A stretch of DNA of 64,000 nucleotides, from assembly GCA_965232515.1 (NCBI GenBank), contig CBDDPY010000002.1, positions 6,304,001-6,368,000 of the forward strand, given 5' to 3'. A program made the translations under genes and the position numbers. The notes beneath the pieces are model-generated. The model searched no databases, had not been told where the DNA came from, and saw only the letters and a program-made list of their open reading frames with translations. How positions within the stretch are numbered: position 1 is the stretch's first letter; each line of letters starts with the position of its first letter. This document shows, one piece after another, positions 2,549-14,724 of this stretch. The DNA comes from Alphaproteobacteria bacterium (lineage in GTDB: Bacteria; Pseudomonadota; Alphaproteobacteria; GCA-2731375).

Positions 2549-4537
<1,989 letters not shown>

Positions 4538-4557: not shown

Positions 4558-5076
4558 CTAAGGGCCGGGGCTGTCGCTCCGGCCCTTTTTGTTGCGCGTG
4601 CCGCGCCGTCCGGCGATGACGACCGCCACCGGTACCTTGAGCAGCTCGTAGGCAATCCAGGTCAGGCCCAGCCCGGCGCCGCCATAGGCGAGACTGACCG
4701 GATCGAGCGGCAAGGCCGGCTGAAACGCCGCGAAGGTGGTGCGCGCAATCTCGCCGTCGATATGCCGCAGGAACACGAATGGCTTGGCGAAGGGATCGGC
4801 CGCCGCGATGGCGTCGTACGCGGAGGCCAGGGCCTCGACACGCGCCCGCGCGGCCTCGGCAAGCTGCGCGCGCGTGGTCTCGTCGACCGCGCGGTAGAGC
4901 GTGCCGTCGCGGATCAGGAGGTGATTGGCTTCCGCCTCTTCCAGCCGGCCGCCCAGCCGCTGCCGGTACTGCTGCAGAAAGGCCAGGAACTGCGACGCGG
5001 CGATGCCGCCCAGCGCCGCGAACATGGCGGCGACCAGGGAATCGAGTTTACGAAAGAGCCAGCGCATGTGCGGCAT
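4558..5076 (-). CDS. DUF2937-like membrane protein (start may be 5067)
   Basis: N-terminal TM followed by SQFLAFLQQYRQRLGG, then FQPALPL and a C-terminal TM, matching the DUF2937 pattern. Confidence 0.75.
   Translation of the reverse strand: MPHMRWLFRKLDSLVAAMFAALGGIAASQFLAFLQQYRQRLGGRLEEAEANHLLIRDGTLYRAVDETTRAQLAEAARARVEALASAYDAIAAADPFAKPFVFLRHIDGEIARTTFAAFQPALPLDPVSLAYGGAGLGLTWIAYELLKVPVAVVIAGRRGTRNKKGRSDSPGP
4561..4590 (+). terminator. Intrinsic terminator of rpoD
   Basis: AGGGCCGGGGC-TGTC-GCTCCGGCCCT hairpin followed by a T run, shortly after the rpoD stop; overlaps the 3' end of the convergent gene. Confidence 0.8.
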
Positions 5077-5318: not shown

Positions 5319-6641
5319 TTAGTTGAAGCCCTGGATCTGGGCCGGCAGATAGGTCGCCAGCGCCGGGAACAGCAGGACCAGCAGCAGGACGATGGCCTGG
5401 CAGGTGATGAAGGGCATGACGCCGCGGTACATGTCGCCGAAGGTGATTTCCGGCGGCGCGATCGAGCGCAGATAGAAGATCGAGGGCGCCATCGGCGGCG
5501 TCAGATAGGACGTCTGGATGACGATGATCATCACCGTCGCGAACCAGATGGGATCGACGCCCTGATCGCTGAGGATCGGCAGGAAGATCGGCAGCGTGAT
5601 CAGCACCACCGAGACCCAGTCGAGGATGAATCCGGCGATAAAGACCAGCAGCAGCAGCACGCCGACGACGCCCCAGCTTGGCAGGTCGAGCGCGGACACC
5701 AGACCCTGCACCAGCTGGTTGCCCTGATGCAGCCGGAAGATGCCGGCGAAGATGTTGCCGCCGACGACGATCAGCAGGATCATGCAGTTGATCAGCAGGG
5801 TTCGCCGGAGCGTATCCGCCAACACGGCGAAGGAGAAACGGCCGTAGGCGATCGTCAGCACGACGGCGCCGAGCGCGCCGATGGAGGCGGCTTCGGTCGG
5901 CGTAGCGACACCGAATATGATCGCGCCCAGGACCGCGCCAATCAGGCCGATCGCCGGCACCATGCCGGTCGCGGTGATCTTCAGCTTTTCGCCGAGCGGC
6001 AGGTCCGTGCCTTCCGTGACCGCCGGCGAGCCCTCGGGCTTGAGCAGCGCGCGGGCCAGGATATAGCCGAGGAACAGCGCCACCATGATGCCGGCTGGAA
6101 TCAACACGGCGGCGAACAGCTTGCCGACCGACTGGTTCGAGATCGAGGCGTAGATCACCACGACGATCGACGGCGGCACCATGGTGCCGAGCGAGCCGCC
6201 GGCGCAGATCGTGCCGGCGATCAGCGAGCGGTCGTAGGCGTAGCGCATCATGATCGGGATCGCCATCACGCCGATCACGACCTCGACGGCGCCGACAATG
6301 CCGGTCGACGCGGCGATCACCGCCGCCATGCCGATGGTCGCCAGCGAAAGGCCGCCGGGCAGCCGGCCGAGCCAGACCTGCATCGCCCGAAACAGCCGCT
6401 CGGATATGCCGGAGGACTCCAGCATCACCCCCATGAACACAAAGGCGGGCACCGCCGAGAGCAGGAATTGGGACGCGGTGTGCTGAATGACGCCGTAGAT
6501 CTGCAGCGAGGCCAAAGCGCCGAAGGCAGGCAAGGCCATGAGGAACGCCGTGGCGATCAGCGCGAAGGCGACGGGGATGCCGAGGAAGACGAACAGGAAA
6601 AGCAGCGGAAACATCAACGCCGCGAGCGTTTGGCCGTCCAT
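5319..6641 (-). CDS. TRAP transporter large permease (DctM)
   Basis: About 12 TM; AGGSLGTMVPPSI, GVATPTEAAS, QTSYLTPPMAP motifs. Confidence 0.95.
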   Translation of the reverse strand: MDGQTLAALMFPLLFLFVFLGIPVAFALIATAFLMALPAFGALASLQIYGVIQHTASQFLLSAVPAFVFMGVMLESSGISERLFRAMQVWLGRLPGGLSLATIGMAAVIAASTGIVGAVEVVIGVMAIPIMMRYAYDRSLIAGTICAGGSLGTMVPPSIVVVIYASISNQSVGKLFAAVLIPAGIMVALFLGYILARALLKPEGSPAVTEGTDLPLGEKLKITATGMVPAIGLIGAVLGAIIFGVATPTEAASIGALGAVVLTIAYGRFSFAVLADTLRRTLLINCMILLIVVGGNIFAGIFRLHQGNQLVQGLVSALDLPSWGVVGVLLLLVFIAGFILDWVSVVLITLPIFLPILSDQGVDPIWFATVMIIVIQTSYLTPPMAPSIFYLRSIAPPEITFGDMYRGVMPFITCQAIVLLLVLLFPALATYLPAQIQGFN

Positions 6642-6644
6642 GCG

Positions 6645-7199
6645 TCAGGCTGCCGTTTGCTCGCGTGCGCTCGGCGCGGGCACCGCCTCGGGCCGCCACA
6701 GACCGATCAGATGCCGGACCGCTTCGATCAGCACCTGCAAGGCGAAGCTGGTGAGGCCGATCGCGATACCGGTCAGGAACGGCCAGATCAGCGGCTCCCA
6801 GGCGCTCATGCTTTCAAGCGTGCCCCGCTCATAGGCCTTTGCCGCCTTGCCGATGGCAAAGTTGGCCGTCATGGCCAGCGCCGGGAGAAAGATACCGAGA
6901 TAAAAGGCCGCGTTGATCGCGTGCTGCACACGCAGCGGCAATCGCGATGAGGCGAAGTCGATGCGGACATGCTGGTTCGCGCGCAACGTAAACGCCGCGC
7001 CCAGCAGGAAGAGCGTGCCATTGAACATGTAGGAGACCGTGTTCGCCCACATCGTCGGCGCGTTGAAGCCGCGCCGGGCGACGACCTCCCAGATCATGGC
7101 GCCGATCATCAACAGCATCAGCAGCATGGCGATCACGCCAAGCCAGCGCCCGACCTGGTCAAGGCCGCGCAGGATTTTCAGAATGGATTCGGTGCTCAC
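6645..7199 (-). CDS. TRAP transporter small permease (DctQ)
   Basis: 4 TM; EVVARRGFNAPTMWA and HVRID motifs. Confidence 0.93.
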   Translation of the reverse strand: MSTESILKILRGLDQVGRWLGVIAMLLMLLMIGAMIWEVVARRGFNAPTMWANTVSYMFNGTLFLLGAAFTLRANQHVRIDFASSRLPLRVQHAINAAFYLGIFLPALAMTANFAIGKAAKAYERGTLESMSAWEPLIWPFLTGIAIGLTSFALQVLIEAVRHLIGLWRPEAVPAPSAREQTAA

Positions 7200-8595: not shown

Positions 8596-9375
8596 CTACG
8601 CATCGCACCCGGCCCGGATTTGTGTGAGGCCTGCTTTCACGGCATCGCCCCAGGCCCAGGCGTCGGCCGAGTAAGCGATGAAGTCGAAGCCCTGCTTGTA
8701 GAGCGCGATGGCATCGGCGACGTCCGGCACCAGGCGTCCGGCCGACGTGTTCGTCGCCTTGCAGGCGTCGATCACAGCGGCAATGGCGTCCGTGAAAGCG
8801 GGATTGTCGAACTCGCCGGGAATGCCGAGCGAGCAGGACAAGTCGAAATGCCCGACCCATAGGCAATCGACGTCGGGCAACGCGGCGATGTCCTTGGCGT
8901 TCTCGACCCCTTCGGCGGTCTCGATTTGCGCAAAGAAGGCCGTGCGCGCGTTGGCCTCGGACAGCTTGTCCAAGGTCGGACCGGCGGTGTAGCGGTCATG
9001 GGCGCTGCGCAGGATCACGCCCCGGCCGCCGGCCGGCGGATACTTGATGCAATGGATGATCGCTTCGGCCTCGGCGGCGGTGCTGACCATCGGCAGCATC
9101 ACGGCTTCGGCGCCCGCGTCCAGCGTGCGGGCAATGTCCTTATAGTCCTTGGACGGCACCCGAACGACCGTCGGTACGCCGGCCGCCCGCATATAGGCGA
9201 CGACATTCTTGACCGTTTCGACCCCATAGCCGCTGTGCTCCGTGTCGAAGATCACGAAGTCGCAGGTCGCTTCCTTCATGATGTAGCCGATGCCTGATGT
9301 GTTGAACTCGAACAGGAAGTGCCCGGCTTTCAGATCGCGGTTGCCGGCCATGGATTTGAGCGCTGTTTCGGTCAT
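8596..9375 (-). CDS. HpcH/HpaI family class II aldolase
   Basis: DFVIFDTEHS, VRVP, KYPPAGGRG, AQIETAEGVEN, VGHFDLSCSLGIPG. Confidence 0.92.
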   Translation of the reverse strand: MTETALKSMAGNRDLKAGHFLFEFNTSGIGYIMKEATCDFVIFDTEHSGYGVETVKNVVAYMRAAGVPTVVRVPSKDYKDIARTLDAGAEAVMLPMVSTAAEAEAIIHCIKYPPAGGRGVILRSAHDRYTAGPTLDKLSEANARTAFFAQIETAEGVENAKDIAALPDVDCLWVGHFDLSCSLGIPGEFDNPAFTDAIAAVIDACKATNTSAGRLVPDVADAIALYKQGFDFIAYSADAWAWGDAVKAGLTQIRAGCDA

Positions 9376-9574
9376 GTCTGCGTCTTTCGCCTTTTCTCGC
9401 TCTCGATGTCGTCGAGCACACAGTCTAACCCCGTCGGCGGGCGGAGGCAGTCACGGTTGCGATTGTCGCGCCGGTTGGCGGTGTCGCCACTTTCTGCTGA
9501 TATAGGCCGAACATTCGATGACGGCGGAAGCGCGGCGCGCCCGCCACCCCCAACAACACTGCGGAGGCGAGGCG

Positions 9575-10183
9575 ATGAAACTCTATGACCTGAAGGCTGG
9601 CATGAACCCACGGCGGGTGCGGATCTTTCTTGCCGAAAAAGGCATCGAGGTGCCGAAGGTCGACGTCGACATGATGAAGGGCGAGAACGCGACACCTGCG
9701 TTCCTGGCGTTGAATCCACTCGGCAAGCTGCCGGTCCTGGAGCTGGACGACGGCACCATCCTGACCGAGTCCATGGCGATCTGCCGCTACTTCGAGGAGC
9801 TGCATCCCGAGCCGCCGCTGTTTGGTCGCGACGCGTTGGAACGCGCGAAGGTCGAGATGTGGAACCGGCGCATGGAGCTGGAGATCGCCTATCCGATGAC
9901 GCAAGTCTTCCAGCATGGCTACGAGTTCTGGAAGGACCGCATCACCCAGGTCCCCGCCTTCGGCGAGGTCTGCCGCGAAAAGCTGCGGGACCGCATGAAC
10001 TGGCTCGACGGCGAGTTGGCCGATCGGGATTACATCGTCGGCGACAGCTACACCGTCGCCGATATCACCGCGCAGTGCGGCCTGCTGATGGGCAAAGCCG
10101 TCGATATGCGGATCCCTGAAGCACTGGAGAACCTGTCGCGCTGGTTCGAAAGCGTTGTGTCGCGGCCAACCGCGCGCGCCTGA
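9575..10183 (+). CDS. Glutathione S-transferase (GTT2-like)
   Basis: NPRRVRIFLAEKG, LNPLGKLPVLELDDGTILTESMAICRY, YTVADITA; RBS GGAGG upstream of ATG 9575. Confidence 0.93.
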   Translation: MKLYDLKAGMNPRRVRIFLAEKGIEVPKVDVDMMKGENATPAFLALNPLGKLPVLELDDGTILTESMAICRYFEELHPEPPLFGRDALERAKVEMWNRRMELEIAYPMTQVFQHGYEFWKDRITQVPAFGEVCREKLRDRMNWLDGELADRDYIVGDSYTVADITAQCGLLMGKAVDMRIPEALENLSRWFESVVSRPTARA

Positions 10184-10186
10184 GCC

Positions 10187-10960
10187 ATGGCTTTCGATCA
10201 TCTCGGTGTGACGGTTGAGGACCGGATCGGCTGGCTGGAATACAACCGACCGCCGGTCAACGCGTTCACGATGGAGATGGTTCGCGAAGTCTCCGAGGCT
10301 TTGGACCAGTTGCTTGCCGATCCGCAAGTGCGGGTTCTCGTCATCGCCAGCGCTGTCGAAAGCTATTTCAGCGCCGGTGCCGATCTGACGGTCTTCGACG
10401 GCATTGGCGAGGCCGGCATGCGCGCCTGGGTCGAGGACGTGCATGGCATCGTCCGCAAGATGCGGGCGGCCGACAAGCCGCTGCTGGCCGCGATCAACGG
10501 CACGGCGGTCGGCGGCGGGCTTGAGATGACGCTGCATTGCGACGTGCGGTTTGCCGCCGCCGACGCCCGCCTCGGCCAGCCCGAGATCAACATCGCCTTC
10601 ATCCCGCCGATCGGCGCCACCCAGGCGCTGGCGCGGCTAATCGGCCGGCCGCGGGCGATCCGTTACCTCTACGAGGGTCGCCTGCTGCCGGCCGCCGAAG
10701 CCCTCGACATCGGGCTGGTCGATGTCGTCGTGCCGCCGGACCAGTTGCGGGCGGAGGTGCGCGCCTACGCGCTCGATCTGGCGGCCAAGCCGGCGGGCGC
10801 GCTGGCCGCGATCCGACGCACCATCACCGAAGGCGGTGGCAGGACATTCGACGAGGGCTTGGCGATGGAGGCGGAGGCCGTCGTGGCCCTCGCCGCCCAT
10901 CCCGATTTCGCCGAGGGCGTGCGCGCCTTCCTCGAAAAGCGCAAACCCAACTGGTCCTGA
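10187..10960 (+). CDS. Enoyl-CoA hydratase/isomerase family protein
   Basis: NRPPVNA, FSAGADL, AVGGGLEM, GQPEINI, AFLEKRKP. Confidence 0.93.
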   Translation: MAFDHLGVTVEDRIGWLEYNRPPVNAFTMEMVREVSEALDQLLADPQVRVLVIASAVESYFSAGADLTVFDGIGEAGMRAWVEDVHGIVRKMRAADKPLLAAINGTAVGGGLEMTLHCDVRFAAADARLGQPEINIAFIPPIGATQALARLIGRPRAIRYLYEGRLLPAAEALDIGLVDVVVPPDQLRAEVRAYALDLAAKPAGALAAIRRTITEGGGRTFDEGLAMEAEAVVALAAHPDFAEGVRAFLEKRKPNWS

Positions 10961-10969
10961 TCGACGCGG

Positions 10970-12076
10970 CTATCGCTGCAGCGCCGAGTGGAAGCGGTCG
11001 ATCCCAAGGTCCTGCCGCAATTCCACGGTGTCCGCCGCCTTGGCGTCCTCCAACGGGATGCCGGTCGAGTCCGCGACCCGATCGATGGCGTTGAACAGGC
11101 CGGCGACGGCGGCCGCATCCACCAGCGCGTCGTCGCCGATTTGCTGCCGGATGCGGTCGCGCAGCTCGGCCAGGGCTTGATCGTTGTCACCGATCGCGGC
11201 TTCGGCAAAGGCCGTCAGCAGGGCGCCGTGGGCGATCCCGCCGTCGCCTGCGGCTTCGCCCGTCACGGCCTGCAGGTCCAGTTCGTCACCAGTATGAGCG
11301 CTGCTCGCACGGAGCAACTGAGCATGACTGGTGGTTCAATAGACGCAGCCGTTGAGGGCCGATACCCGGCCGGCGATCAGCTCGATCTGCGCATGATCGA
11401 TGGCCCGGAACTCGCGGTCGAAGTCGCGCATGGCTGCGCCCGGCAGATACTGGGTTTCGACGATATCGAAAAAACCGCGCACCTCGTCGGGCACCAGGCT
11501 AAGGGCGCGCCGGATGTGGGCGCCTGTGGTGCCGCCGTAGAGATCCGCCTCGGCGTCGCCGGCGTCCTCCGGCGCGATCCACGGCACCCAGGCGGGGCCC
11601 GGTTTGGCGCCGGCGGGCCGATAATTGGTCGGCGCGCCGTCCATGGGTTCGGGCAACGGCAGCGGTTCGACACCGATGCCTCGGGCAAAGGTGTCCACGG
11701 CGACGATGTTGGCCAGTACGCCGATGATCTCGACATACTGCCCATCGCTCAGGCCATCGGCCCGAACACTGTCGAACCAGCGCCGGGTCAGCCGGCCCGG
11801 GTCCGTCCGGACTCGATGGATGACCTCGACAATCGGGGCGCCGAGAACGCCCAGGCTTTGGTGTTCGCCATCGATGGCATAGGGCGACAGCGCGGCTTTC
11901 CGTTCCCGGCAAAGCGGGCAGGCGGTGGCGTTGCGGGCCTCGGCCGCGATCGCCACCCGCTCGGCGCCGGTGAACCAGGCACCGGGCCTGGCCAGGCGAT
12001 GCCAGGCGCGCGTATGGGCCGCAGTCAGGTCGGCCCGCACCGCGAATGGCGCGGTTTCATAGTTAATTTCTGTCAT
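10970..12076 (-). CDS. AhpD/CMD-like alkylhydroperoxidase-related selenoprotein (368 aa, Sec at codon 247)
   Basis: ORFs 11336..12100 and 10970..11317 are in one frame, joined by TGA (11338-11336) plus 6 sense codons, giving ELIAGRVSALNGCVY-U-TTSH (AhpD E-x4-S-x2-N-x-CxxC-x3-H motif); SECIS-like hairpin follows; strong RBS before ATG 12076. Confidence 0.85.
11287..11333 (-). promoter_or_regulatory. Bacterial SECIS-like stem-loop
   Basis: On the mRNA: CACCAGU/ACUGGUG lower stem, AUG/CAU, upper stem GUUGCUC/GAGCAGC, apical loop CGUGC starting 24 nt after UGA. Confidence 0.75.
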
Positions 12077-12284
12077 TACGGATCCTCTCCTCGTGCCCAA
12101 AGCCTAGGGCAGACCAGTGGCCAGTTCGAGCGGAAATCGAGCCCGGCGGCGGGCGTGACGCCAGGACGATCGCGAACGGTCGCAAACGGATTAGTCAATG
12201 TCGCTCGAAAGCCAGTTGCGGCCGGCGGTCGGGCGCAACGTGGGCGTCGAAAATCGGTGTTCCCCTGGCAGAGGATCTTGGGTG

Positions 12285-13631
12285 ATGCTGAAAGCACAAG
12301 CGACCAATGGCGCCGCCGGACCGCGCCACGTTAACTTTCAAAACAGCGTTGATCAGAGCGATCGCAAGGTACCGATAAACCTGCGGCAGACCGGACCGAC
12401 CGCGGTCGAGATGCTGATCTCGACGCGGGTGCGGAAGTCGCCTTATTGGCATCTGTCGATGGAAGCCGGCTGCTGGCGCTGCACGGTCTACAACCGGATT
12501 TATCATCCGCGCGGCTATGTGAAGCCGGAGGATGGCGGTGCGGCCGTGGAGCACGACTCGCTGGTGAACGACGTCACTCTATGGAACGTCGCCGTCGAGC
12601 GTCAGATCCAGGTCATCGGTCCCGACGCCGAAGCGTTCGTCAACTTCGTGATCACCCGCGACGCCACCCGCATCGAGCCGATGAAAGGCAAATACGTCAT
12701 TCTCTGCAACGAGAAGGGTGGCATCCTTAACGATCCGGTGCTGCTGCGTCTGTCCGAAGATGAGTTCTGGTTCTCGATCTCGGACTCAGACCTGATGCTG
12801 TGGCTGCAGGGCGTGAATGTCGGCAAGCGCTTCGACGTCGAGATCAACGAGATCGACGTCTGCCCGGTGCAGATCCAGGGGCCGAAGTCGGAAGACCTGA
12901 TGGCCGATCTGGTCGGCGAGACCGTCCGCGAGCTGCCGAGCTACGGCATGATGCGGGCGCAGGTCGGCGGTCGCGACGTGGTCATCTCGCAGACCGGCTT
13001 TTCCGGCGAGAAGGGCTTCGAGATCTACCTCTACGATGCCACGCTGCATGCCGAGGACATGTGGTACGCGGTGCTGGCGGCGGGCAAGAAGCACAAGCTG
13101 CGGGTCATCGCGCCGGGCCATCAGCGGCGGATTGCCGCCGGCATCCTGTCCTGGGGCCAGGACATGGATTTCGAGACCGTGCCGTTCCAGGTCAATCTGG
13201 GTTACCAGGTGCCGCGCAAGAAGACGGCCGACTATATCGGTAAGGCGGCGTTGGAAAAGATGCGGGCCGACATCGAAGCCGGCAACCCGCCGTTCAAGAG
13301 CACGCTGGTCGGCATGGAACTGGGCGGCAAGCCGATCGACGAATATGCGCCGGACTTCTGGCTGATCTCCGGCCCCGACGGCGGCGACCCGTTCGGCTAT
13401 GTGACGTCGCCCTGGTACGCGCCCGAGCTCGGTACGAACATCGCCATGGGCTTCGTGCCGGTGGGCATGTCCGCGCTGGGGACCGAGCTCAAGGTCTGGC
13501 TGCCGGAGCAGTATCAGGAAACGGCCGGTCAGCCGGTCGCGGCCAAGGTGGTCGAGATGCCGTTCCGGCCGTCGGTCAATCCGAACGCGCGTGAAATCGC
13601 CAAGGCCGAAGGCCGCGACGCCGCGTTCTAA
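12285..13631 (+). CDS. GcvT/DmdA-like THF-dependent aminomethyltransferase/demethylase
   Basis: RVRKSPY...TVYNRIYHP, WNVAVERQIQVIGPDA, LNDPVLLRLSEDEFW, QIQGPKS, SQTGFSGEKGFEI; GAGGA RBS before ATG 12285. Confidence 0.88.
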   Translation: MLKAQATNGAAGPRHVNFQNSVDQSDRKVPINLRQTGPTAVEMLISTRVRKSPYWHLSMEAGCWRCTVYNRIYHPRGYVKPEDGGAAVEHDSLVNDVTLWNVAVERQIQVIGPDAEAFVNFVITRDATRIEPMKGKYVILCNEKGGILNDPVLLRLSEDEFWFSISDSDLMLWLQGVNVGKRFDVEINEIDVCPVQIQGPKSEDLMADLVGETVRELPSYGMMRAQVGGRDVVISQTGFSGEKGFEIYLYDATLHAEDMWYAVLAAGKKHKLRVIAPGHQRRIAAGILSWGQDMDFETVPFQVNLGYQVPRKKTADYIGKAALEKMRADIEAGNPPFKSTLVGMELGGKPIDEYAPDFWLISGPDGGDPFGYVTSPWYAPELGTNIAMGFVPVGMSALGTELKVWLPEQYQETAGQPVAAKVVEMPFRPSVNPNAREIAKAEGRDAAF

Positions 13632-13665
13632 CGGCACGGCCGGACGCCAAACGGAGGATTCGAAA

Positions 13666-14724
13666 ATGAGCGCCGATCAATCAACGGCCAAGCACGGCTT
13701 GCTGGAGCGCCTGGAAGCAGGTCCTGTTATCGTCGCCGAAGGTTATCTGTTCGAGTTCGAGCGTCGCGGGTACCTGCAGGCGGGCGCCTTCGTGCCCGAG
13801 GTGGTGCTGGAGCATCCCGAAGCCGTCCGGCAACTGCATATCGAGTTCGCCCGGGCCGGCAGCGACGTTATGGAAGCCTTCACCTACTATGCGCACCGCG
13901 AGAAGATGCGCCTGATCGGCCGCGAGGGGCAGCTCGAGGAGATCAACCGCAACGCCCTGCAAATCGCAAAGGGTGTCGCGGATGAGTACGGCACGTTGCT
14001 CGCCGGCAATATCTGCAACACCAATCTCTACGATCCGGCCGATCCCGAGTCGCACAAACAAGCCCGGGCGATCTTCGAAGAGCAGGTGCAGTGGGCGGTG
14101 GATGCCGGTGTCGATATGATCATCGGCGAGACCTATTCATGGGTCGGCGAGGCGATGATCGCGCTAGAGGTCATTAGTCAGACCGACCTGCCGTCCGTCA
14201 TGACATTGGCGCTGCACCGCGAGCCGACGACACGCGACGGCGTCGATCCAAATGACGGCTTCAAGCAGATGCACGACGCTGGCGCCGATGTCGTCGGCTA
14301 CAACTGTATTCGTGGGCCCTGGACCATGGTGCAGTTGCTGCCGGAACTGCGGCAGAAGGTGCCGGGCCATCTGGCGGCCTTGCCGGTTCCGTATCGCACG
14401 CTGCCCGCGCAGCCGACGTTCCAGTCGCTGCGGGATCCTGGATGCAACTCGATCCCGGACGACCGACCGTTCCCGGTCGCGCTCGATCCCTTCGTCTGCA
14501 ATCGATACGAAATGGCCGATTTCGCCAAGCAGGCCTACGAGGCCGGCGTGCACTATATCGGCGGTTGCTGCGGCACCGGTCCGCATCACGTGCGTGCGAT
14601 GGCCGAGGCGCTCGGCCGGCAGCCCGAAGCGAGCCGGTATTCGGTCGACATGTCGAAGCACGCTTACTTCGGCACCGAACAGAGCCTGAAAGCGACCAAT
14701 ACCGCGTACGCGGATCAGCTCTAG
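13666..14724 (+). CDS. bhmT: Betaine--homocysteine S-methyltransferase (homocysteine S-methyltransferase family)
   Basis: EGYLFEFERRGYLQAGAFVPEVVLEHPE, AFTYYAHREK, Zn ligands GYNC and IGGCCG; GGAGG RBS. Confidence 0.85.
   Translation: MSADQSTAKHGLLERLEAGPVIVAEGYLFEFERRGYLQAGAFVPEVVLEHPEAVRQLHIEFARAGSDVMEAFTYYAHREKMRLIGREGQLEEINRNALQIAKGVADEYGTLLAGNICNTNLYDPADPESHKQARAIFEEQVQWAVDAGVDMIIGETYSWVGEAMIALEVISQTDLPSVMTLALHREPTTRDGVDPNDGFKQMHDAGADVVGYNCIRGPWTMVQLLPELRQKVPGHLAALPVPYRTLPAQPTFQSLRDPGCNSIPDDRPFPVALDPFVCNRYEMADFAKQAYEAGVHYIGGCCGTGPHHVRAMAEALGRQPEASRYSVDMSKHAYFGTEQSLKATNTAYADQL

Follow-up and report, generated by a model that had tools for sequence, protein, structure and literature searches.

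A probable AhpD-related selenoprotein of family NF041238 encoded across an in-frame UGA in an alphaproteobacterial genome

AhpD-like selenoproteins are listed among the most abundant selenoproteins in marine metagenomes (PMC2398784, Table 2), and the families 'AhpD-like 1' (COG2128), 'AhpD-like 2' (pfam02627), TIGR01926 and NF041047, which carry a CxxU motif in an AhpD fold, are common there (PMC2398784). NCBIfam NF041238, 'AhpD_rel_CFYUT, alkylhydroperoxidase-related (seleno)protein', is already catalogued and is modelled at equivalog level. A 2026 review lists it as a CxxU selenoprotein identical with the protein called 'hypothetical protein 1' in the Sargasso Sea selenoproteome (PMC13188914); the link between the two names rests on a table in that review. 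In 2005, 'hypothetical protein 1' was described from four sequences in which a CXXU motif was conserved and a selenocysteine insertion sequence (SECIS) element predicted, with no functional evidence (PMC1088965). We analysed a 64,000-nt stretch of contig CBDDPY010000002.1 (positions 6,304,001 to 6,368,000) from Alphaproteobacteria bacterium assembly GCA_965232515.1, hereafter the window, which holds a reading frame with an internal TGA on the minus strand at 12076..10970. As judged by the sequence comparisons below, this region is predicted to be one gene for a 368-residue selenoprotein of NF041238, with the UGA read as selenocysteine (Sec, U); we put the probability at about 0.93. Biologically the gene is nothing new in kind, the family having been known since 2005 and having a curated model. 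It is still of interest for a near-obligate use of Sec and for a probable Sestrin-like architecture of two lobes, apparently not described before, in which CxLC is a second invariant motif.

The sequence and the list of open reading frames (ORFs) showed that the minus strand from 12076 to 10970 is a single frame, broken only by the TGA at 11338-11336. The upstream ORF (11336..12100, minus strand, 254 aa from a TTG) terminated with ...RVSALNGCVY at this TGA. Downstream, the same frame continued through ACC ACC AGT CAT, encoding T-T-S-H, and A-Q-L-L-R into the second ORF (10970..11317, minus strand, 115 aa, TTG start). The original prediction, made from the sequence alone, had described the junction in these terms, and all its statements about this sequence held when compared with the ORF list and the translation. 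With the TGA translated as U, the complete coding sequence (10970..12076, minus strand) had 368 codons and a TAG stop at 10972-10970; it gave one 368-aa product from the ATG at 12076-12074, with the Sec codon (11336..11338, minus strand) at position 247. A Shine-Dalgarno-like GGAGAGGA, read from the sequence, was located at 12083..12090 (minus strand), 6 nt upstream of the ATG. The protein started at an equivalent M-T-E-I-x-Y or close by in 28/28 relatives, in agreement with this start codon. The convergent enoyl-CoA hydratase gene terminated with ...PNWS-TGA at 10958-10960; TGA is the ordinary stop of that gene and hence not a general sense codon in this genome. A promoter scan found no promoter-like site, and a terminator scan found two terminator-like sites, no more than shuffled sequences yield and neither at the end of the selenoprotein gene.

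The 368-aa protein matched NF041238 over the whole model (residues 13-364 to model positions 1-357 of 357) with 503.7 bits against a cut-off of 175 (E 3.1e-151), and it carried the motif C244-V-Y-U247-T. A six-frame search of the genome with the same model gave 495 bits, with one TGA inside the match. The full-length match means that the family has already been modelled, as the original prediction had suspected. The protein shares with NF041238 the CxxU motif, the TGA at that motif, a SECIS hairpin downstream and a length of about 360-375 aa, and differs in nothing essential, the motif being C-V-Y-U-T instead of the family's C-F-Y-U-T. Pfam CMD (PF02627) matched residues 225-261 with 27.7 bits (gathering threshold 23), and no other Pfam family matched at E <= 0.1; together with an all-helical AhpD fold, this places the protein in the AhpD/CMD superfamily. 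Its scores were below the cut-offs of TIGR00777, the model of AhpD proper (19.4 against 191.95 bits), and of TIGR01926, the peroxidase-related enzymes (47 against 81.8 bits), and it is therefore a relative of those families and not a member. The other AhpD-like/CMD selenoprotein families named above are separate and shorter and have models of their own.

The active site was compared with the relays of AhpD-type proteins. The relay residues are Glu118, Cys130, His132, Cys133 and His137 in Mycobacterium tuberculosis AhpD and Glu36, Cys48, Tyr50, Cys51 and His55 in Pseudomonas aeruginosa PA0269 (both PMC3141380), and Glu74, Cys86, Tyr88, Cys89 and His93 in YP_296737.1 (PDB 2prr; PMC4674687). Translation of the window gene and an alignment of 29 sequences with 53-60% identity to the window protein gave Glu232, Cys244, Tyr246, Sec247 and His251, that is, the pattern Glu, Cys, His/Tyr, Cys, His at the same spacing of 12/2/1/4. 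TIGR00777 aligned residues 226-258 to its positions 112-144. Because the relay spacing equals that of AhpD, Sec would replace the second Cys of the CxxC dyad, a CxxU arrangement typical of thiol-redox enzymes (PMC1088965). Within the active-site segment E232...S239..N242.C244-V-Y246-U247-T-T-S-H251 (11324..11383, minus strand), E232, S239, N242, C244, Y246, U247 and H251 were invariant in 29/29 sequences; T248 and many residues up to position 358 were invariant as well. This agrees with the earlier proposal that the TGA sits at the second Cys of an AhpD/CMD-type E...S..N.CxxC...H pattern, with the catalytic His downstream of it.

The relay also bears on a different explanation, in which the TGA really ends translation and the 115-aa ORF is made separately, with the TTG at 11317 as its start. 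Both ORFs are indeed open under table 11. Two separate genes would, however, divide the AhpD relay, leaving E232, C244 and Y246 upstream and H251 downstream, and both the family hidden Markov model and a confidently modelled fold cross the junction. Full-length forms with Cys in place of Sec exist, and the proposed TTG lies inside the conserved hairpin described below, where it is the codon of Leu254; this codon is CTG, not a start codon, in 24/29 relatives. We consider two separate genes highly improbable.

We then examined the TGA and the protein sequence in homologues from a sample of 61 related genomes, a class-wide sample of 401 genomes, a phylum-wide sample of 401 genomes, and named contigs, of which the best 80 of 295 tblastn-confirmed relatives were used. 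The class-wide sample and the related genomes have G000, G003, G007, G008 and G037 in common. The TGA was in frame in all 69 matches from 32 of the related genomes (68 with one TGA and 1 with two) and occurred once in each of the 34 matches from 21 class-wide genomes. The phylum-wide sample gave one match, from the window's own genome, with the TGA in frame, and no Cys form was found among its 401 genomes. All 80 matches in the named contigs had TGA at the same column. The motif C-x-Y-TGA-T-[TA]-[SW]-H was found at this column in 29 of 30 relatives' loci by a first check, and the thirtieth, L056, was likewise confirmed. A motif pattern matched 77 of the 80 named contigs, and the other 3, which have R for N before the Cys, were confirmed separately. 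These contigs include metagenome-assembled genomes (MAGs) labelled Myxococcota, Binatia and Sulfotelmatobacter. The residue following the motif Cys was V in 30, F in 14, A in 15, L in 12 and T in 6 of the 77 contigs; Gly243 of the window protein corresponds to Gln in 26/28 relatives. No homologue examined had TAA or TAG at the Sec column, and none was split into different frames, arrangements that the original prediction had named as speaking against it. The alignment of the 29 sequences showed conservation on both sides of the TGA, and the 121 codons downstream of it were in frame and conserved.

The family was also searched in a collection of 5.8 billion proteins, in which 2,429 of 8,000 scored candidates matched at E <= 1e-10; the best 120 were inspected. 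Among these, 117 were 'hypothetical proteins' of 233-264 aa that stop just before the Sec codon, 116 of them ending in N-x-C-x-Y and one in C-V-F. The splitting of such genes by gene callers, which had been anticipated, is thus a practical annotation problem, with standard callers truncating NF041238 proteins at Sec, and the gene in the window should be annotated as one selenoprotein. The remaining 3 were full-length proteins (352-434 aa, 49-52% identity) that carry an AhpD family label and have Cys at the Sec column. As aligned, these full-length Cys relatives and the TGA homologues form a classic Sec/Cys pair. With TGA in every genomic copy examined and 3 Cys forms among the best 120 database matches, the use of Sec in this family appears to be nearly obligate.

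A nonsense-split pseudogene was considered next: a former Cys codon (TGC or TGT) would have become TGA, and only a dead 246-aa fragment would be made. Gene callers do treat the gene in this way, as the 117 truncated matches among the best 120 indicated, and L056 may be a real pseudogene. All genomic homologues examined, from several phyla, nevertheless share the TGA at this column, and the conserved 121-codon reading frame follows it. The Sec machinery and the hairpin, described in the following two paragraphs, also speak against a pseudogene, which we regard as scarcely credible; the pseudogene and two-gene readings are both effectively excluded. As for L056 (G004:C5:697697-698746), its second in-frame TGA replaces the codon for Trp163, a residue that is otherwise invariant, and this locus is probably either degenerating or misassembled; another copy in the same genome, G004, has a single TGA. 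In a MAG contig labelled Rhodospirillaceae (NZDS01000061.1; L085:3001-5200), two tandem copies of the selenoprotein gene lie in different frames, with the TGA in C-L-Y-TGA-T-T at nt 3739 and nt 4851. The distribution of the family is patchy in the class-wide sample (21/401 genomes), versus 30/32 other sampled genomes of the window's bacterial family. The relatives G001-G032 usually have 2-4 paralogues, with up to 4 in G018, and the genome of the window has only one, along with five distant genes of the CMD family that lack a TGA.

The genome of the window (7.39 Mb in 4 contigs, 96% complete) contained the full Sec machinery, which does not fit a pseudogene. Profile searches of this genome found selA (575.7 bits), selB (429.2 bits), selD (290.4 bits) and tRNA-Sec (71.6 bits), each above its cut-off; ARAGORN gave the anticodon of tRNA-Sec as tca (UCA). 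The presence of selA, selB, selC and selD, which the original prediction had named among its checks, supports its interpretation of one 368-aa selenoenzyme with Sec247, as do the family model and the conservation of the TGA. The genes cluster within G000:C2:5873594-5884533, outside the window (loci L001, L003, L011 and L014): selA adjoins selB, tRNA-Sec follows about 3.7 kb further, and selD comes last. In a 774-aa fusion protein, SelD forms the C-terminal part and is joined to a pyridine-nucleotide disulfide oxidoreductase domain (TIGR03169, 466.8 bits; TIGR00476, 286.8 bits); with the 'fusion_not_SelD' model this protein scored 508, less than the cut-off of 700. Ndh-SelD fusions of this kind are mentioned in PMC2398784. 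Elsewhere in the genome, at G000:C2:3662617-3663141 (plus strand), the selB model had a translational-GTPase-like match (E 2.0e-9) within a 505-aa open frame that includes one in-frame TGA; a frameshift or a broken gene could account for this, or the TGA may mark another recoding site.

A SECIS-like stem-loop was found directly downstream of the TGA at 11287..11333 (minus strand), from UGA+3 to UGA+49. It consists of a 7-bp stem, CACCAGU/ACUGGUG, 3 further base pairs, a second 7-bp stem, GUUGCUC/GAGCAGC, and a CGUGC loop that starts 24 nt after the UGA. In the bSECISearch model, the apical loop contains G or GU and lies 16-37 nt after the UGA, and the hairpin in the window has both features. 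The apical part (11300..11318, minus strand; loop at 11311-11307) was strongly conserved: the tip GCUC-CGUGM-GAGC was invariant in 72/72 distinct sequences, with C28, G29 and G31 of the loop invariant. The two pairs below GCUC/GAGC stayed paired in these 72 sequences, as U-A in 38 and U-G in 33 for one and as C-G in 52 and U-G in 15 for the other. The element overlaps the codons of L-L-R-(A/E)-S, whose synonymous positions were frozen in 29 relatives. Codon +8 after the UGA was CTC in 29/29 (background 11% of Leu codons in the same genes), codon +9 was CGT in 29/29 (12% of Arg codons), codon +10 was GCG in 24/24 Ala codons (40%), and codon +11 was AGC in 28/29 (40%). The frozen synonymous sites indicated selection on the RNA and not on the protein alone; this again speaks against a pseudogene. 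The conserved core of the SECIS element is, as read from these sequences, the apical 6-bp stem with the 5-nt loop, and the CACCAGU/ACUGGUG stem is genus-specific. That long stem is common to the window and L134 (87% identical), and only four pairs of the lower stem, columns 6-9 with 49-52, were common. One lower-stem pair covaried among 29 close relatives (C-G 20, G-C 3, U-A 1, U-G 1, broken 4). Because conservation of the lower stem is limited to close relatives, we leave it out of the SECIS element proposed for the family. The stems, the CGUGC loop and the 24-nt spacing were therefore as first described, but conservation beyond the genus is confined to the apical 6 bp and the loop.

Several observations weigh against a selenoprotein gene with a SECIS element. 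The energy of the hairpin alone was only modestly unusual, at -26.9 kcal/mol compared with -19.85 +/- 2.94 for shuffled sequences (z -2.40), and 6/200 shuffles folded as well. Covariation over the full hairpin was not significant in the 72 sequences, its score being reached by 30/500 shuffles, and the lower helix of the window structure was paired in only 51% of cells in the same set. An Rfam scan of 10800-12300 at E <= 10 gave 7 weak matches, all far below gathering and none to a SECIS family. Contigs from an RNA-seq library, from a relative 95-99% identical, covered 10800-11122, 11150-11335, 11667-11927 and 12005-12300; they flank the UGA on both sides with none bridging it, and they may represent DNA carry-over. 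Two polyA RNA-seq runs (X21 and X24) yielded 0 reads for the region, which says nothing about expression. A DNA contig from a public run spanned 10800-12300 with 0 differences, and it is not independent support because it possibly has the same source as the window. Since the apical stem never varies, it cannot covary; the strong evidence for the SECIS element is comparative, not energetic. With these points taken into account, the reading of a single gene with a decoded UGA is retained at the probability given above.

To examine the fold, the protein was modelled with AlphaFold2 and the alignment of 29 sequences. The model was all-helical, with a predicted local distance difference test (pLDDT) score of 90.2 and a predicted template modelling (pTM) score of 0.92. 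Foldseek placed PDB chain 6k40_A first (E 2.9e-3, template modelling (TM) score 0.72), followed by 2prr, 2pfx, 3c1l and 2oyo, all on the C-terminal half; a sequence profile found the same PDB entries on residues 194-344, with 6k40 at E 1.5e-10 (residues 194-342). These AhpD-like 'peroxidase-related' proteins, 6k40 from Deinococcus radiodurans among them, share the C-lobe fold (TM 0.72-0.75, target-normalised) and the Glu...Cys-x-Tyr-Cys...His relay. They differ in being single-lobed, of about 190 aa, with Cys, and mostly oligomers in crystals, whereas the window protein has 368 aa, a probable additional N-terminal AhpD-like lobe and Sec for the second Cys. M. tuberculosis AhpD (1gu9) has the same relay spacing and a structural match at Z 8.0 over residues 185-341, but the window protein has Tyr in place of His132, and the TIGR00777 score given above indicated that it is not an AhpD orthologue. 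No ahpC gene was seen among the immediate neighbours scanned.

In a VIA-align structural comparison over 48,161 chains, the best whole-chain match was human Sestrin2 (5cuf_A), with Z 16.6, 236 aligned residues and a root-mean-square deviation of 3.3 over model range 1-341; this Z value is little above the chance level for helical models. Sestrin2 is described as twofold pseudo-symmetric, with two AhpD-like domains and an AhpD-like oxidoreductase motif (PMC4674687). The probable likeness is that of one chain with two AhpD-like lobes. Identity to 5cuf_A was, however, 11%, and CMD was the sole Pfam match at E <= 0.1, which leaves the window protein outside the Sestrin family. Sestrin2 has its active motif, with one Cys, in the N-domain, whereas the window protein has the full relay in the C-lobe with Sec.

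The N-terminal lobe (residues 1 to about 150; 11627..12076, minus strand) was all-helical and appeared AhpD-like, with no Pfam match. When its 155 residues were modelled alone (pLDDT 90.6), the top 7 chains in VIA were of the AhpD/CMD fold (Z 7.8-5.7), with Sestrin2 at 4.5 and unrelated chains at <= 4.4. Foldseek also ranked the AhpD/CMD family first for this lobe, but with E >= 0.12. From these models we read the 368-aa protein as a two-lobed AhpD fold resembling Sestrin2, with Z values within the reach of helical models by chance. The Foldseek E-values, which were all above 1e-3, tell against this reading, as does a comparison of the N-terminal with the C-terminal half by hhalign, which was not significant (E 0.024, probability 2%). 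An internal duplication, considered from sequence, found no support in this comparison.

The N-lobe contains a C-x-L-C motif, C53-P-L-C56 (11909..11920, minus strand), in which C53, L55 and C56 were invariant in 29/29 sequences; C53 and C56 were also kept in the 3 Cys-form relatives. H72 and H87, near this motif in the sequence, were invariant in the alignment. The N-lobe lacks the relay pattern, having Lys60 at the His position and no Glu at -12. The motif may serve as a redox relay or bind a metal. Limited literature searches found no description of a two-lobe architecture or of the CxLC in the N-lobe; the text of the 2026 review does not mention sestrin (PMC13188914), and supplementary files could hold more.

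The standard bacterial pathway suggests how the gene would be expressed. The UGA at 11338-11336 would be decoded as Sec, with the hairpin directly downstream, through its tip GCUC-CGUGM-GAGC, recruiting SelB with Sec-tRNA(Sec) to the ribosome. In the product, the U247 selenolate may attack an oxidised substrate, which could be an alkyl hydroperoxide or a partner protein in its sulfenic or disulfide form. C244 would then resolve the selenenic intermediate to a selenenylsulfide, which might be reduced again, possibly by an external thiol system or through the CxLC of the N-lobe. As a tentative proposal, more speculative than probable, we suggest that NF041238 proteins are two-lobed AhpD enzymes of bacteria, resembling Sestrins and almost obligately dependent on Se, in which the N-lobe C-x-L-C is a built-in relay that recycles the Cys244-Sec247 selenenylsulfide. 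Such an enzyme would reduce hydroperoxides or disulfides on its own, needing no AhpC/AhpD-type partner. The invariant relay and the second CxLC motif make the family a tractable target for biochemistry.

The functional proposal has to be weighed against a real selenoprotein that is not a peroxide or disulfide reductase and uses the CMD/AhpD fold for other chemistry, for example reductive dehalogenation, as in Bmp8, or decarboxylation. The Bmp8 debrominase (6ohi_A) was among the best structural matches (Z 12.8 against the whole model and 6.2 against the N-lobe alone), the protein falls below the cut-offs of both AhpD proper and the peroxidase-related enzymes, and the neighbouring genes give no redox context. 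Against other chemistry stand the invariant Glu/Cys/Tyr/Sec/His relay of AhpD-type oxidoreductases and the CxxU Sec typical of thiol-redox enzymes (PMC1088965), and we consider it unlikely. The genomic context lends the reductase proposal no support. Neighbours were compared in 74/80 named contigs, L128-L131, L133 and L136 being left out since the pattern did not place the gene in them, and no conserved neighbour was found among these 74 loci: the largest cluster, a PEBP-family protein, occurred at 14/74, and other shared neighbours (transglycosylases, a cupin and an aminotransferase) at <= 13/74 each. Because no neighbour is widely shared, no functional partner can be inferred and the context gives no clue to the substrate. 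NF041238 has, to our knowledge, no characterised member.

In the window, the selenoprotein gene stands alone, flanked by convergent and divergent genes. A glutathione S-transferase gene (9518-10183, plus strand) and the convergent enoyl-CoA hydratase gene (10187-10960, plus strand) lie on one side. On the other, divergent from the selenoprotein gene, are genes for a GcvT-like aminomethyltransferase (12198-13631, plus strand, 477 aa) and a protein of the homocysteine S-methyltransferase family (13591-14724, plus strand, 377 aa). The latter two genes overlap by about 40 nt and look like a methyl-group or one-carbon demethylation pair. Further away, the window contains genes for TRAP transporter DctM and DctQ subunits (5319-7199, minus strand) and for an HpcH/HpaI aldolase (8596-9375, minus strand). 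Small word shares of the stretch occurred in marine and coral metagenomes, and we draw no conclusion on habitat from them. The sequencing runs in which the entire stretch is present are labelled with a species for which the remaining libraries are polyA RNA-seq. Together these observations hint at a eukaryotic host whose DNA was sequenced along with that of the bacterium.

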